Shown: positions 3,348-36,534, counted from the stretch's first letter. The stretch: 64,000 nt of DNA from Escherichia coli O127:H6 str. E2348/69 (GCF_000026545.1 NC_011601.1), one strand, 5' to 3'. Made by a program: numbers and translations. The notes: generated from the sequence alone by a model not told the origin.

Positions 3348-3364
3348 ATTACCTTACAGGTAAT
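3348..3364. promoter_or_regulatory. Operator-like palindrome ATTACC-N5-GGTAAT
   Basis: Perfect inverted repeat ATTACCttacaGGTAAT, same motif as the immunity-region operators; upstream of small plus-strand gene 3441..3701. Confidence 0.45.
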
Positions 3365-3440
3365 TTACATTTCATGCTGGATAGTCCTGATATCTTCTGC
3401 TACTGTATGTTTTATACAGTGATTGCATGGAGAAGAAGAG

Positions 3441-3701
3441 ATGCAACGGCAGTATCACCATCCGCTGGAAGAAGGATTTGAGGAAAGAATACACACGCCG
3501 GTAGGCGTTAGATCCCTGGTGGAGGAATCGCACCTGATGAAGTTGCTGCGGGAACTCGATAAAGATGGCTTCAATGTTGATGGGCCACTTGCTGAACTGG
3601 TTGCTCTTGTGAACTACGTCACAAGTTCTCAAATGACCATGCAGGATCTGCAAACTCATCTCGATTACTGTGCGGAACAGTTACGTAAGCAAACCACTTA
3701 A
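3441..3701 (+). CDS. Hypothetical small protein (86 aa), opposite-strand moron inside the virion gene block
   Basis: ATG at 3441 preceded by GGAGAAG; opposite strand to flanking virion genes; operator palindrome upstream. Confidence 0.4.
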   Translation: MQRQYHHPLEEGFEERIHTPVGVRSLVEESHLMKLLRELDKDGFNVDGPLAELVALVNYVTSSQMTMQDLQTHLDYCAEQLRKQTT

Positions 3702-3702
3702 T

Positions 3703-3730
3703 GAAAAATAAAAGGCCGCTATTGCGGCCT
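3703..3730 (-). terminator. Rho-independent terminator (minus-strand orientation)
   Basis: AGGCCGC-tatt-GCGGCCT hairpin; the T-run is on the minus strand (plus-strand AAAAATAAAA at 3703-3712). Confidence 0.5.
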
Positions 3731-3750
3731 AGTGACATGTCACACTCATG

Positions 3751-3891
3751 CTATGACAAACCTATGTACCCTGCTATACCAGATAATATTAAAACAACTG
3801 CGACGGCAAATTCCCCATCTTCAATGATACATTTACGGTTCATTACGACAAGCGCGACAAGTGCCAACACAACAAGAATTATAACAATCAT
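3751..3891 (-). CDS. Small hydrophobic peptide (46 aa, two predicted TM segments), not in ORF track
   Basis: Manual translation MIVIILVVLALVALVVMNRKCIIEDGEFAVAVVLILSGIAGYIGLS; AAGGA 8 nt upstream of ATG; starts just after stop of upstream gene. Confidence 0.25.
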   Translation of the reverse strand: MIVIILVVLALVALVVMNRKCIIEDGEFAVAVVLILSGIAGYIGLS

Positions 3892-33462: not shown

Positions 33463-33613
33463 TCCTCACGACAATATCAGCGTCGGCAGTATCACGCTGG
33501 TTTATTCAGCTCTGCGCCGCGGGTGGCTTGTACCTGGCGGAAGTGTCATACAGAACCCATTAAAGGCTCAGCGCATTGCTGAGCTGATGAACAGCAAGAA
33601 GGTGGCGGCATGA
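33425..33613 (+). CDS. Hypothetical small protein (62 aa)
   Basis: ATG at 33425 with GAGG upstream; ATGA overlap with downstream gene. Confidence 0.3.
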   Translation: MQGSDVAGWCMTNPHDNISVGSITLVYSALRRGWLVPGGSVIQNPLKAQRIAELMNSKKVAA

Positions 33614-34323
33614 AAGAGCGCGGAATGATTTTTAACGGAGAGATGGTGCGCGCCCTGCTGGACGGACGGAAGACGCAGACGCGGAGACCTCTCAAATGGA
33701 AGCAAACTCGGTTTACTGAAATAGCTGAACGCGAAGACGGTAGCCATTGGCCGTGGAGTGAGGATGCAGAAAATGTGTGCGATTTCTGGCATCCATGCCC
33801 GTTCGGTGCCGTCGGCGATCGCATCTGGGTGCGGGAGACGTGGGGCGTAGTGAGTCATGAACTGGATGAAGACGGTCGCATTCAGCCATGGATCCCTGAC
33901 CGACCTGCCACAGCCATTCACGAGATGCCGTTTGGTAATGGCTACTATTCTGGTCACGCTATCTACGCCGCAGATGGTGATTTTACATGGGGTGATGATG
34001 ATGGTTATGAAGATGGTCGTTCGTGCTGGAAACCATCTATCCATATGCCACGCGCAGCATGTCGCATTCTGCTGGAGGTTACCGGCGTGCGGGTGGAGCG
34101 CTTGAACGCTATCAGCGAAGAGGATGCGCGAGCAGAAGGAATTATTGACGGTGGCTGTCTCAATTGCGGTGAACCTGAACCATGCGGTTGCGCTAATCCA
34201 GATCCTGACGCGACAGATGCCTTCGCTTACCTGTGGCAATCGATCTATGGGCAGGAAAACTGGAACGCGAACCCTTGGGTATGGGTCATCGAGTTCAAGC
34301 GCGTTGAAGGCGGTGCAGCATGA
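33610..34323 (+). CDS. ASCH/PUA-like domain protein (237 aa)
   Basis: N-terminal MIFNGEMVRALLDGRKTQTRR typical of ASCH-domain proteins (from memory); ATGA-coupled to methyltransferase gene. Confidence 0.45.
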   Translation: MKERGMIFNGEMVRALLDGRKTQTRRPLKWKQTRFTEIAEREDGSHWPWSEDAENVCDFWHPCPFGAVGDRIWVRETWGVVSHELDEDGRIQPWIPDRPATAIHEMPFGNGYYSGHAIYAADGDFTWGDDDGYEDGRSCWKPSIHMPRAACRILLEVTGVRVERLNAISEEDARAEGIIDGGCLNCGEPEPCGCANPDPDATDAFAYLWQSIYGQENWNANPWVWVIEFKRVEGGAA

Positions 34324-34913
34324 ACGGTAAATACACTCTGATTTATGCTGATCCTCCTTGGTCATACCGCGACAAAGCAGCCGACGGCGAGCGCGGCGCC
34401 GGATTTAAATATCCGGTTATGAACGTGCTGGATATCTGTCGCCTGCCAGTGTGGGATCTTGCCGCCGACGATTGCCTACTGGCAATGTGGTGGGTTCCTA
34501 CTCAGCCGGTTGAGGCGTTGAAAGTGGTCGAATCGTGGGGCTTCAAGCTGATGACCATGAAGGGATTCACCTGGCACAAGACGAATAAGCACAAAGGTAA
34601 CAGCGCGATCGGCATGGGCCACATGACAAGGGCGAACAGCGAAGACTGCCTGTTTGCGGTGCGTGGGAAACTACCGGCCCGCATGGATGCGTCAATCTGC
34701 CAGCACGTCACGGCGCCGCGCATGGAAAACTCGCGCAAGCCTGACATCATCCGCGAAAAACTGGTGCAGTTGCTGGGCGATGTTCCGCGCATTGAGCTAT
34801 TCGCCCGCCAGTCGTCACATGGTTTCGACGTATGGGGCAATCAGTGCGAAGGCCCGTCGGTGCAGTTGCTACCAGGCTGCTCTGTTCCGGTTGTAAGGAC
34901 GGAGGCAGCATGA
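34320..34913 (+). CDS. MT-A70-family N6-adenine methyltransferase
   Basis: DPPW catalytic motif (LIYADPPWSY). Confidence 0.65.
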   Translation: MNGKYTLIYADPPWSYRDKAADGERGAGFKYPVMNVLDICRLPVWDLAADDCLLAMWWVPTQPVEALKVVESWGFKLMTMKGFTWHKTNKHKGNSAIGMGHMTRANSEDCLFAVRGKLPARMDASICQHVTAPRMENSRKPDIIREKLVQLLGDVPRIELFARQSSHGFDVWGNQCEGPSVQLLPGCSVPVVRTEAA

Positions 34914-35089
34914 CAATGTTCAATGAGGCGGAGTTAATCCGCCAACTGGAAGAACAGCGCGCTGTGATTGTGCAGAAAAGTGCTCAAGTTAACTGGTTGC
35001 AAACTGAAAACAGTGTTTTGCACAAGAAATGTGAAGAACTGCAAATGACAGTTGATCTACAGCGAGAATTTATACAATCCAGAAATTAA
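34910..35089 (+). CDS. Small coiled-coil protein (59 aa from ATG at 34910)
   Basis: GGAGG RBS; ATGA overlap with methyltransferase stop. Confidence 0.35.
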   Translation: MTMFNEAELIRQLEEQRAVIVQKSAQVNWLQTENSVLHKKCEELQMTVDLQREFIQSRN

Positions 35090-36339
35090 TCACCTTCACT
35101 CATCCATCGCTCAAACTTCGACGGGGAGAATGGCACCAGATCGGTGTGCTCCCCGCTAATCCAGGCATCAACCATATCTGCCCACTGCTGCAACATGTAG
35201 GCGCGCTGCCTGGCGTACTCCGCTTTGTTGTATACCGCACGCACTCCCTTTTGCTCATGCGCCAGCGCCTTTTCAATCCAGTCTGATGGATAACCAGCCT
35301 CATGCAACAGCGTACTGGCTGTGCGGCGCAGGTCGTGCACAGAGAATTCATCAAGATGCCCACCAGCCTCGCTCACCGCTTCGACGGTGGTATTGATCAG
35401 CCTGTTCAGTGCGCCATTGGATAACGGCTTGCTAACCGAATAGCGCCCGGGCAAAAGGTAATCACTTCCACCAGCGCACATCTGCAGGCCAACAATGAGA
35501 TCCTGCGCCTGCTTTGGCAGATAGATAACGTGTGACCGGCTTCCCTTCATTCGTTCCGCCGGTATCGTCCATGTCCATTTTTTGAAATCGATTTCTGACC
35601 ATGTGGCGTTGGTGAACTCGCTTTTGCGAACCAGGGTGAGCAGCACCAGTTTTAATGCCAGTTTCATTGTGGCCATAGCCCCGACATTATCCAGCGCCCG
35701 GAAGAATACGCCTATCTCTTCAGGTTGCAGCGTGCGGTCGCGCGGCTTGAACATGGCTATTGATGAAGGCTTGATATCAGCAGCAGGATTAAACAGGCCA
35801 TGCCCGCGATCATTAGCGTGACGGTATACACTGCTGATTATCTCTCTGGCTTGCACTGCCGTAGCCCGGCCTCCACGTTCAACAATGCGATCGCACAGGT
35901 CACGCACCATGCCGGTGGTTATCTCAGCCATCATTTTGTTACCCAGCACCGGCATGATGTCGCGATCGATAACGGCCTGTTTCATCGCCCGGGTACTGTC
36001 AGCCAGAATGACGTGCTTCATATAGCTGTCGGTATGTACCGCGAAGGTTTCAGCACCACGGATCTTTTTGATACCGTCACGTTTCGCCGCAGCTGGCGAC
36101 TGGCCTGCCTTTAACAGTTTTTTGGCAGCAATGAGTTCTTCTCGTGCTTCCGCCAGGCTGATACCGTCACGACCGTACTGACCGATGACCAGCGTTTCCC
36201 GGCGCCCGTTAATGCGGTAGTCGTACCGGAAAGAGACAGAACCGGAAGTAAGCACCGCAACATACAGCCCGTCACGATCCGAAACCTTATACAGTTTGTC
36301 CTGCGGCTTGAGGTTTTTCAGTTTGGTATCAGTAAGCAC
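35086..36339 (-). CDS. int: Tyrosine integrase (P4-type)
   Basis: N-terminus MLTDTKLKNLKPQDKLYKVSDRDGLYVAV typical of P4-like integrases; C-terminal HDLRRT...Y catalytic region; adjacent to guaA 3' end. Confidence 0.8.
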   Translation of the reverse strand: MLTDTKLKNLKPQDKLYKVSDRDGLYVAVLTSGSVSFRYDYRINGRRETLVIGQYGRDGISLAEAREELIAAKKLLKAGQSPAAAKRDGIKKIRGAETFAVHTDSYMKHVILADSTRAMKQAVIDRDIMPVLGNKMMAEITTGMVRDLCDRIVERGGRATAVQAREIISSVYRHANDRGHGLFNPAADIKPSSIAMFKPRDRTLQPEEIGVFFRALDNVGAMATMKLALKLVLLTLVRKSEFTNATWSEIDFKKWTWTIPAERMKGSRSHVIYLPKQAQDLIVGLQMCAGGSDYLLPGRYSVSKPLSNGALNRLINTTVEAVSEAGGHLDEFSVHDLRRTASTLLHEAGYPSDWIEKALAHEQKGVRAVYNKAEYARQRAYMLQQWADMVDAWISGEHTDLVPFSPSKFERWMSEGD

Positions 36340-36534
36340 AATTCACCCGTAAAGCATCCATGGTTTGACGGTATGAAGAGTATACCTTTAAGGTAATACC
36401 GTCACCTGTACCGATGAAAAATGTGAGATAGAGTGAATAGATATGATGTGATATAAAGAAAAACCCTCTGTAAAAACAGAGGGTTGATTGCATAACTGAA
36501 TAGAAATGATTAGCTGTGAGTTAGCTGTACATCA
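36340..36534. other. Candidate prophage attachment region at the guaA 3' end
   Basis: Lies between int start and guaA stop; contains imperfect operator-like site (36381-36397) and local TTAGCTGT duplication (36511-36528); core not definable because the other prophage end is outside the window. Confidence 0.3.

Follow-up and report, generated by a model that had tools for sequence, protein, structure and literature searches.

The phages ε15 and SPC32H, members of one genus, are the closest described systems. Kim & Ryu in 2013 and Kim et al. in 2016 are said to have described the Rep-Ant-LexA switch of SPC32H (PDB 5D50/5D4Z), and the annotation of repressor sites in ε15 is reportedly the work of Kropinski et al. 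in 2007. The RefSeq record of ε15 (NC_004775.2 / AY150271.2) marks seven perfect palindromic sites as 'protein_bind: repressor', an annotation that is a prediction; they lie before terS, before gp3, between ant and the tailspike gene, after the replication genes and, three of them, at PL. On palindromic DNA, Rep is a tetramer whose DNA-binding pairs are drawn from different dimers (PMC9638917, citing Kim 2016), and the fold of its tetramerisation domain is one that, in Rco of pLS20, has been connected with DNA looping (PMC9986798). In phage ZX5, transcripts of holin and endolysin fell by more than 99.9% when the homologous repressor was overexpressed, an effect that may be indirect (PMC9782041).

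The window analysed here, 64,000 nucleotides from Escherichia coli O127:H6 str. E2348/69 (NC_011601.1), contains an ε15-like (Uetakevirus) prophage integrated at guaA, which shares its genus and gene order with ε15 and SPC32H and differs from them in its tailspike, its O-antigen conversion module and this integration at guaA. It encodes a Rep homologue and, beside the tailspike gene, an Ant homologue with a LexA box, and it carries orthologues of the seven ε15 sites in the same seven places. Because the ε15 record already marks these as repressor-binding, the finding is not new: the dispersed palindromes are an ordinary feature that had been described before. The ε15 record has no annotation for the proximal mid-early site, for the imperfect sites at PR/PRM or for the pairing of sites at 62 bp, all described below. 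A further ε15 site, upstream of the lysis genes, is absent from the E2348/69 prophage, and thus not every site is obligatory.

A sequence-only reading of this DNA had claimed that the palindrome ATTACC-N5-GGTAAT recurs at 10 or more places in the prophage and that this is not chance, and our motif scan with permutation control bore out both statements. The window holds seven perfect copies and three with one mismatch (Table 1), against no perfect copy in 100 dinucleotide-preserving shuffles; with up to two mismatches allowed, there are 17 copies where 1.9 are expected (shuffle maximum, 6). In a blind count of all 6-N(0-11)-6 palindromes in the window, ATTACC-N5 ranked first with its seven copies, and the other top palindromes were sub-patterns of it or had just two copies. 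As a host control, 132 kb of E2348/69 were scanned: the host DNA within the window, the sequence flanking the prophage on its right, and two further samples of 50 kb each. This DNA contained no site with one mismatch or fewer and seven with two, compared with 10 and six, respectively, in the 36.4 kb of prophage, so that the motif is not equally frequent in the sampled host DNA. These three comparisons, with shuffled sequence, with other palindromes and with host DNA, rule out an artefact of chance or composition. According to the PGAP annotation, nine of the 10 sites with at most one mismatch are non-coding, although only 8.4% of the prophage is; the tenth, at terS, also becomes non-coding if the shorter terS start of the ε15 and SPC32H records is taken. 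Three two-mismatch matches were set aside as looking like chance: those at 11162 and 17763 fall in coding sequence or at a gene junction with a Shine-Dalgarno sequence, and that at 42483 is in host DNA. Full-text literature searches for the motif string gave no match, and tRNA and Rfam scans of the window gave nothing bearing on the palindromes.

Table 1. Features of the E2348/69 prophage bearing on the palindrome. Positions are counted from the first letter of the window; "operator" stands for a predicted repressor site.
Feature	Position	Strand	Details and basis
Perfect copies (7)	starts 3348, 20594, 23942, 26432, 29480, 29542, 29618		motif scan of window
One-mismatch copies (3)	starts 26370, 28739, 28756
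Two-mismatch copies	starts 23924, 28368, 28709, 36381		position kept in relatives
Ant/tailspike operator	3348-3364	.	single, perfect; divergent intergenic region
Putative ant promoter	TGGATA 3378-3383, TACTGT 3401-3406	+	17-nt spacer; by eye
ant LexA box	3403-3419		over ant promoter; alignment with relatives
ant	3441 (ATG) to 3701	+	86 aa; PDB 5D50_E match
Operator with promoter-like element upstream of gp3	20573-20610	+	perfect operator 20594-20610
Promoter-like element at this operator	TTGACA 20573-20578, TACCTT 20596-20601	+	17-nt spacer; operator overlaps -10
terS-proximal pair	23924-23958	-	perfect 23942-23958; weak 23924-23940
Mid-early module	26370-26448	-	between P-like helicase-loader gene and DUF1064/PDDEXK gene
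Mid-early proximal operator	26370-26386		one mismatch; contains Shine-Dalgarno
Mid-early promoter	26413-26384		promoter-like; TTGAAA-18-TAAATT
Mid-early distal operator	26432-26448		perfect
Half-degenerate copy, ATTACC-N5-GGTGTT	28368-28384	.	downstream of cro-like gene; two mismatches
cro-like small regulator gene	28437-28670	-	ε15 gp39 homologue; phrog_35 and synteny
PR/PRM operator triplet	28709-28772	.	between cro-like gene and rep; 28709-28725 (two mismatches), 28739-28755 (one), 28756-28772 (one); motif scan
rep, immunity repressor	28826-29422	+	198 aa; PDB 5D50_A match
PL operator triplet	29480-29634	.	all perfect; 29480-29496 (distal), 29542-29558 (over -10/+1), 29618-29634 (just before first gene of recombination operon); motif scan, orthologous to ε15 features
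PL promoter	29515-29543	rightward	promoter-like; TTGACA-17-GATTAT
int-proximal copy, ATTACC-N5-GGTATA	36381-36397	-	imperfect; 58 bp upstream of int

Among relatives, the conservation resembles a footprint: half-sites are invariant, the spacer is A/T-rich yet variable, and the flanks are uninformative. Positions are kept across the genus at terS (perfect in 63/63), gp3 (31/31, 25 of them perfect) and int (16/16), and the spacing of neighbouring sites peaks at 62-63 bp (76 distinct contexts). Triplets do stand on both sides of the repressor gene, as had been claimed, and the motif recurs at other transcription-unit boundaries; the sole coordinate error was at terS, where the perfect copy had been placed at 23952.

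Reps of the ε15/SPC32H type pair an N-terminal HTH domain that binds DNA with a C-terminal domain for tetramerisation and Ant binding. Along its whole length the rep product here shares about 97% identity with SPC32H Rep (PDB 5D50_A, E 5e-127), and it has two HTH-like regions; in the Pfam search HTH_3 was the sole domain found, with no S24 peptidase domain. The Reps of phiV10 and Tyrion are just 43-46% identical, yet they keep the half-site and, within the HTH region at their N-terminus, the stretch NLVNRW. Across Reps from 43% to 100% identical, ATTACC half-sites and NLVNRW are kept throughout, which leaves no variation in the motif to set against repressor specificity. Divergent from rep, the cro-like gene matches phrog_35 ('transcriptional repressor', E 2e-10) in a synteny shared with ε15, SPN1S and SPC32H, and its product probably also binds the palindromes. 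A leftward promoter-like element (TTGATT-16-AATAAT, 28733-28706) overlaps the first PR/PRM operator. The deviations of this triplet (GGTGAA, GGTAAC, TTTACC) recur in most relatives, the middle site being perfect in a few, and the half-degenerate copy beyond the cro-like gene keeps its offset in 22/23 distinct contexts with variable spacers. The PL operators, which are orthologous to the ε15 'repressor' features 32479, 32554 and 32616, are perfect in about 20 of 21-23 distinct contexts, and two of them, exactly 62 bp apart, flank PL.

The mid-early promoter is flanked in the same way by two operators whose starts are 62 bp apart, in the order T-run terminator, distal operator, promoter, proximal operator with the Shine-Dalgarno sequence, and ATG. 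This module is orthologous to the ε15 'repressor' feature 35906-35922, and its architecture is kept in more than 35 relatives, whichever gene comes next. At terS, whose ATG is at 23922, a terminator (23995-23976) is closely followed by the pair, the weak copy of which overlaps the ribosome-binding site. The perfect site, orthologous to ε15 'repressor' 12-27, is found 36 or 27 bp ahead of the terS start in the relatives; it falls in the spacer of a promoter-like element that is weak yet conserved, and overlaps no convincing σ70 core promoter. A gp49-like regulator beside terS was matched only as a PHROG 'transcriptional regulator', with no match in Pfam, NCBIfam or PDB.

Two calls of the sequence-only reading had to be revised. 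The site at 20594, orthologous to ε15 'repressor' 2931-2947 and 90 bp upstream of the gp3 ATG at 20504, had been described as lying upstream of the portal operon. It overlaps the -10 of a promoter-like element that points away from gp3/portal, toward a pseudo-tRNA and an ORF at 21313-21807; the pattern TTGACN-17-TACCYT is found in 24/24 distinct relatives with 12 different spacers, each of exactly 17 nt. No gp3 promoter on the late strand was found at 20594, the conserved element being on the opposite strand. The gene of the virion block that had been called a moron is ant, which encodes the antirepressor: its product matches chain E of PDB 5D50 (E 2e-54), is near-identical to the crystallised protein, and has the counterpart SPC32H_020, annotated 'ant'. 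The operator upstream of it, orthologous to ε15 'repressor' 19895-19911, overlaps no convincing σ70 core promoter: the -35 of the putative ant promoter comes 14 bp after its end, and it stands 27 bp upstream of the -35 of a promoter-like site for the tailspike gene (3321-3293, minus strand). In phiV10, Tyrion and PAT1 the sequence on either side of it has diverged, but its half-sites have not. The ant LexA box has an N9 spacer here, against N8 in every relative and in one further assembly of E2348/69. A candidate promoter (TAGGTA-17-TACCTT) whose -10 would fall within the 3348 operator was dropped, as it is not conserved in PAT1 or Tyrion.

The imperfect copy reported near int is present, with two mismatches in 16/16 relatives, at -58/-57. 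This copy may serve Rep as a weak site, lying over a putative int promoter (TTCATC-17-TACCTT), or it may belong to arm-type repeats of the integrase; its assignment to Rep is uncertain because it coincides with repeats that the ε15 authors annotated as integrase-binding (it overlaps the 'integrase' protein_bind feature 26873-26882).

From these comparisons, the palindrome is almost certainly a Rep binding site at several promoters, and we give a probability of roughly 80% to the broader reading that the palindromes are operators of the prophage's own Rep, forming a genome-wide immunity regulon that would keep several transcription units off in the lysogen. The earlier proposal of repressor binding at many operon boundaries, and not only at two operators, stands as the most economical reading. 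In this picture Rep is an HTH protein of the non-cleavable kind, and the tetrameric repressor to which it is homologous is inactivated by Ant. At PL and the mid-early promoter, operators 62 bp (about six helical turns) apart bracket the promoter, one upstream of the -35 and one over -10/+1, and one Rep tetramer, having two DNA-binding pairs, could hold both operators at once and thereby clamp the promoter. The 20594 operator, over the -10 of the promoter toward the accessory pseudo-tRNA/ORF unit, would block initiation; the terS operator, between terminator and start codon, would repress the weak promoter-like element or block read-through; and the ant/tailspike operator would act from upstream of both core promoters, with ant itself held by LexA. 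The first sites to fill would be the perfect ones, at PL and the dispersed loci, and the conserved imperfect PR/PRM sites would give graded autoregulation.

Such an arrangement resembles the tripartite OL/OR operators of lambda, which act with long-range looping, in its three operators on each side of the repressor gene, its divergent early promoters, its graded site quality at the repressor's own promoter and an oligomeric repressor that could bridge sites. In lambda, however, operators are confined to OL/OR, whereas the prophage has four perfect ones 3-26 kb from rep; its PL operators are 62-76 bp apart and not adjacent; and Rep is without the S24 autocleavage domain, induction presumably running, by homology with SPC32H, through a LexA-controlled antirepressor. 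The Streptomyces phage φC31 has conserved inverted repeats (CIRs) of about 17 bp, which recur between many genes, chiefly in the early region, and are bound by the phage repressor. In the immI region of P22 (mnt-arc-ant), the antirepressor gene is a late-region neighbour of the tailspike gene and has dedicated repression of its own, ant being controlled by Mnt and Arc and not by LexA with a nearby operator of the main repressor. The proteins and hosts of φC31 and P22 are unrelated to those of the E2348/69 prophage.

A likeness to mycobacteriophage stoperators had also been proposed, and this part held up poorly. As in L5, Bxb1 and TipsytheTRex, one repressor would serve many genome-wide sites, including the structural-gene region, many of them at gene or operon boundaries. 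The stoperators of cluster A phages are 13-bp asymmetric sites, more than 20 per genome in early and late operons, which are oriented with transcription, are inactive if inverted and stop elongation, and their repressor is a monomer with two DNA-binding domains, HTH and 'stoperator' (PMC9283540). The prophage sites, in contrast, are symmetric 17-mers, about 14 in number (10 with at most one mismatch and about four conserved weaker ones), and only about four sites lie outside the immunity region. Being perfect palindromes, they allow no orientation-dependent action, which is defining for stoperators (PMC9283540), and Rep is homologous to a tetrameric repressor (PMC9638917) and unrelated to the monomeric two-domain proteins. 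Stoperators occupy promoter-less gaps within operons, whereas the sites at PL, the mid-early promoter and 20594 overlap promoter-like elements at conserved spacing; those at terS and ant/tailspike overlap no clear core promoter, so that on this point the comparison is mixed. We consider it unlikely that Rep at terS, upstream of gp3 and at ant/tailspike forms stoperator-like roadblocks to RNA polymerase leaking from upstream units. In its favour, the operator at terS follows directly on an intrinsic terminator, 20-36 bp before the ATG, with no strong σ70 promoter between, and a promoter-like element (24029-24001) ahead of that terminator resembles a late promoter/terminator pair needing antitermination. 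The terS site is also the sole upstream element invariant in all relatives, whatever gene precedes, and from PR onward the early-right, terS-to-gp18 late, tailspike, lysis and int genes lie on the same strand, so that read-through is possible.

Even less probable is a conservation of the dispersed copies that has nothing to do with Rep binding and is due instead to binding of the Cro-like regulator alone, of IHF or, at the int copy, of integrase, or a role as recombination junctions between mosaic modules. The mid-early and terS modules do coincide exactly with mosaic junctions: what comes after the terminator-operator-promoter-operator block is in some relatives a DUF1064-type and in others a RuvC-type gene, and terS is preceded by different genes. 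The ε15 authors, moreover, predicted IHF sites beside two dispersed operators, as well as the integrase sites over the int copy. The dispersed copies nevertheless match the rep-flanking operators in half-site, spacer length and A/T-rich spacer, and are of better quality than the PR/PRM sites; a recombination linker has no need for an exact 6+5+6 palindrome with a variable spacer, and a junction role is compatible with an operator role and no substitute for it.

As an extension of the Rep-operator reading, we tentatively raise, as improbable, the idea that Rep tetramers are promoter clamps on operator pairs that stand 62-63 bp apart (about six helical turns) to either side of a promoter, as at PL and the mid-early promoter, and that the single late operators are of a different class, some lying in an accessory -10 (20594) and that at terS serving as a symmetric roadblock after a terminator. 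If true, one repressor of an enterobacterial podovirus would combine looping-based control of initiation with stoperator-like control of elongation.

The analysis carries little weight as discovery, the dispersed sites being annotated in the ε15 record and the repressor-antirepressor pair having a crystal structure. Its value for annotation is that operators, the ant gene and its LexA box can now be marked in the E2348/69 guaA prophage, where the 'moron' and 'portal promoter' calls are due for correction. Tests of the terS site and of the geometry of paired operators could reveal by what means a whole podovirus genome is kept silent by a tetrameric, non-cleavable repressor.

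The scan of the window for the 17-bp palindrome ATTACC-N5-GGTAAT, the predicted binding site of the prophage immunity repressor Rep, yielded seven perfect copies, against none in 100 dinucleotide-preserving shuffles. Copies with at most two mismatches numbered 17 versus 1.9 expected, and the motif ranked first in a blind tally of every 6-N(0-11)-6 palindrome. The recurrence noticed in the sequence-only reading is therefore real and highly non-random, and the positions that it listed are correct apart from the site before terS, which begins at 23942 and not at 23952. Within the window, the prophage (1 to ~36450) accounts for seven perfect, three one-mismatch and six two-mismatch copies, whereas a 132-kb sample of E2348/69 host DNA contains no copy with at most one mismatch and seven with two, so the motif is not equally frequent in the host. 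Under PGAP annotation, nine of the ten sites with at most one mismatch are non-coding, while the non-coding share of the prophage is only 8.4%; the terS site is non-coding given a terS start at 23922, the start used in the ε15 and SPC32H records. Judged from sequence, the proposal of repressor targets far outside the immunity region appears right.

An ε15-like podovirus prophage of the genus Uetakevirus (relatives SPN1S, SPC32H, PAT1, ε15, Tyrion and phiV10) occupies the region; its insertion point in E. coli O127:H6 E2348/69 is the 3' end of guaA. The window begins inside the prophage, left of the tailspike gene, and the lysis genes fall outside. Seven places in the ε15 RefSeq record are marked "protein_bind: repressor / lysogeny", all of them ATTACC-N5-GGTAAT and orthologous to the seven perfect sites of the window, so the dispersed distribution has been recognised since the ε15 genome was annotated. 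The feature is not new, and the repressor-antirepressor system of which it is part has been structurally characterised. A one-mismatch Rep site also lies upstream of the holin/lysis cassette in ε15, SPN1S, phiV10 and Tyrion; no such site is present at that place in the E2348/69 prophage (L089 39236-39431, left of window position 1), where the adjoining O-antigen conversion module differs. Three early-right (ea-type) ORFs at L089 11623-13108 (about window 24480-25970) are incomplete pseudogenes according to PGAP, a sign that the prophage may have decayed in part.

Predicted Rep sites and neighbouring features (window coordinates, except ε15 rows, which follow its RefSeq record, and L089, the locus record of this prophage with its own coordinates)
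Feature	Position	Strand	Description
Operator, ant/tailspike	3348		perfect
LexA box	3403-3419		CTGT-N9-ACAG
ant (antirepressor Ant)	ORF 3441-3701		PDB 5D50 chain E, E 2e-54; "ant" in SPC32H annotation
Operator, upstream of gp3	20594		perfect
Promoter-like element	20573-20601	opposite gp3	predicted Rep control
Pseudogenic tRNA-Gly	about 21056-21168	+	PGAP; mapped from L089 16418-16530
Operator, terS	23942		perfect
Second copy, terS	23924		weak; overlaps terS ribosome-binding site
Operator, mid-early	26432		perfect; follows P-like helicase-loader gene and terminator
Operator, mid-early	26370		follows operator 26432 and promoter TTGAAA-18-TAAATT
PR/PRM operators	28709-28772		three, all imperfect, between cro-like gene and rep
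rep (repressor)	28826-29422		~97% identity to SPC32H Rep, structure PDB 5D50
PL operator	29480		perfect; upstream of -35
PL promoter	29515-29543		TTGACA-17-GATTAT
PL operator	29542		perfect; over -10/+1
PL operator	29618		perfect; before first gene
int copy	36381		always imperfect
GTGACATGTCAC	3732-3743		after gp18
GTGACATGTCAC	21812-21823		after ORF 21313-21807
GTGACATGTCAC	24018-24029		stop of gp49-like regulator before terS
sroE (host sRNA)	60024-60115	-	Rfam RF00371, 116.6 bits; unrelated to operators
ε15 repressor feature	12-27		before terS
ε15 repressor feature	2931-2947		before gp3/portal
ε15 repressor feature	19895-19911		between gp19 and tailspike gene
ε15 repressor features	32479, 32554, 32616		beside repressor gene
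ε15 repressor feature	35906-35922		after replication gene

Conservation was examined in 80 relatives gathered via the Rep protein together with six phage genomes, loci in which about 8% of random 200-nt windows hold a match with at most two mismatches. In 63/63 loci terS has a perfect site 36 or 27 bp upstream of its start, a site at -106/-105 precedes the portal-operon gene gp3 in 31/31 (25 perfect), and a two-mismatch copy at -58/-57 precedes int in 16/16. In alignments the site is a conserved island amid diverged DNA, with half-sites essentially invariant, a variable but A/T-rich 5-nt spacer and uninformative flanks. The Reps of phiV10 and Tyrion, only 43-46% identical, keep the same half-site and an NLVNRW stretch in the N-terminal HTH region. 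The int copy overlaps repeats that the authors of ε15 gave to integrase, and its assignment to Rep is therefore uncertain.

At the early promoters beside rep, the deviations of the PR/PRM operators from consensus are themselves conserved in most relatives, which suggests that affinities are tuned there and high elsewhere. In the mid-early module, which lies before the DUF1064/PDDEXK gene, operator 26370 includes the Shine-Dalgarno sequence of the following gene; the two operators start 62 bp from each other, precisely the PL spacing, and the promoter hexamers likewise hold equivalent positions. Over all loci, adjacent sites are spaced 62-63 bp apart in 76 distinct contexts, with smaller classes at 72-76, 17-18 and 30 bp. 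From the 62-bp geometry we infer that a Rep tetramer may pair the operators. Two papers that cite the work of Kim and colleagues on SPC32H describe a tetrameric Rep that binds palindromic DNA and whose DNA-binding pairs join subunits of different dimers (PMC9638917), and a tetramerisation domain with the fold that in Rco of pLS20 is linked to DNA looping (PMC9986798). The terminator-operator-promoter-operator-Shine-Dalgarno block is followed in relatives by a DUF1064/PDDEXK-type gene, as here, or by a RuvC-type resolvase gene; the gene preceding the terS operator also varies, and operator/promoter blocks (ATG 26367; 23958-24030) coincide exactly with mosaic junctions.

The sites had been likened to mycobacteriophage stoperators, which are asymmetric, orientation-dependent 13-mers present in more than 20 copies per genome; binding of a monomeric repressor to them stops elongation (PMC9283540). 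This comparison fails, since the prophage sites are symmetric, number about fourteen and overlap promoters at three loci, and Rep is homologous to a tetramer; all that is shared, loosely, is that a single repressor has many sites. At terS, where the operator comes after a terminator (23995-23976) with a promoter-like site ahead of it, a roadblock is possible. By eye, the terS operator also takes up the spacer of a weak element, GTGTTA-16-AATTAT, with a conserved nTGnTA part, and control of initiation is likewise possible.

Operator 20594 had been assigned to the portal operon, but no gp3 promoter was detectable near it. On the opposite strand, TTGACN-17-TACCYT occurs in 24/24 distinct relatives with twelve spacer sequences, all exactly 17 nt. 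Because the -10 of this conserved element falls within the operator and the element points to the downstream pseudogenic tRNA-Gly and ORF 21313-21807, the operator most likely controls this accessory unit and not the portal operon. The counterpart position in SPC32H holds a tRNA-Arg, and ARAGORN found no tRNA in the window.

A second palindrome, GTGACATGTCAC, has three copies with at most one mismatch versus 0.19 expected. Each precedes a unit-ending intrinsic terminator in the direction of transcription, by 2-4 nt (~22 nt for the terS-side copy). Copies occupy equivalent positions in ε15, SPN1S, SPC32H and PAT1, and two of the three do so in phiV10 and Tyrion. It is absent from the features listed in the ε15 record and may be a candidate site of a second regulator.

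The gene beside operator 3348, taken for a moron in the sequence-only reading, encodes the antirepressor Ant. The divergent core promoters of ant and tailspike both have this operator on their upstream side, and a LexA box overlying the putative ant promoter starts 55 bp past the operator start, roughly the distance to the PL proximal-operator start (62 bp). Only HTH regions were found in Rep, and no S24 peptidase domain. In work of Kim and Ryu from 2013 and Kim et al. from 2016, Rep reportedly stays uncleaved in the SOS response, Ant inactivates Rep, and LexA represses ant. The LexA box has one additional T within a T-run; the canonical N8 form is found in SPN1S, SPC32H, ε15, PAT1, Tyrion, phiV10 and E. 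coli ET846. Of the E2348/69 assemblies, CP059840.2 shows N8, and LT827011.1 and LT903847.1 agree with the N9 of the window, which is either a homopolymer sequencing error or a lineage variant. The latter should leave the antirepressor under weaker control by LexA.
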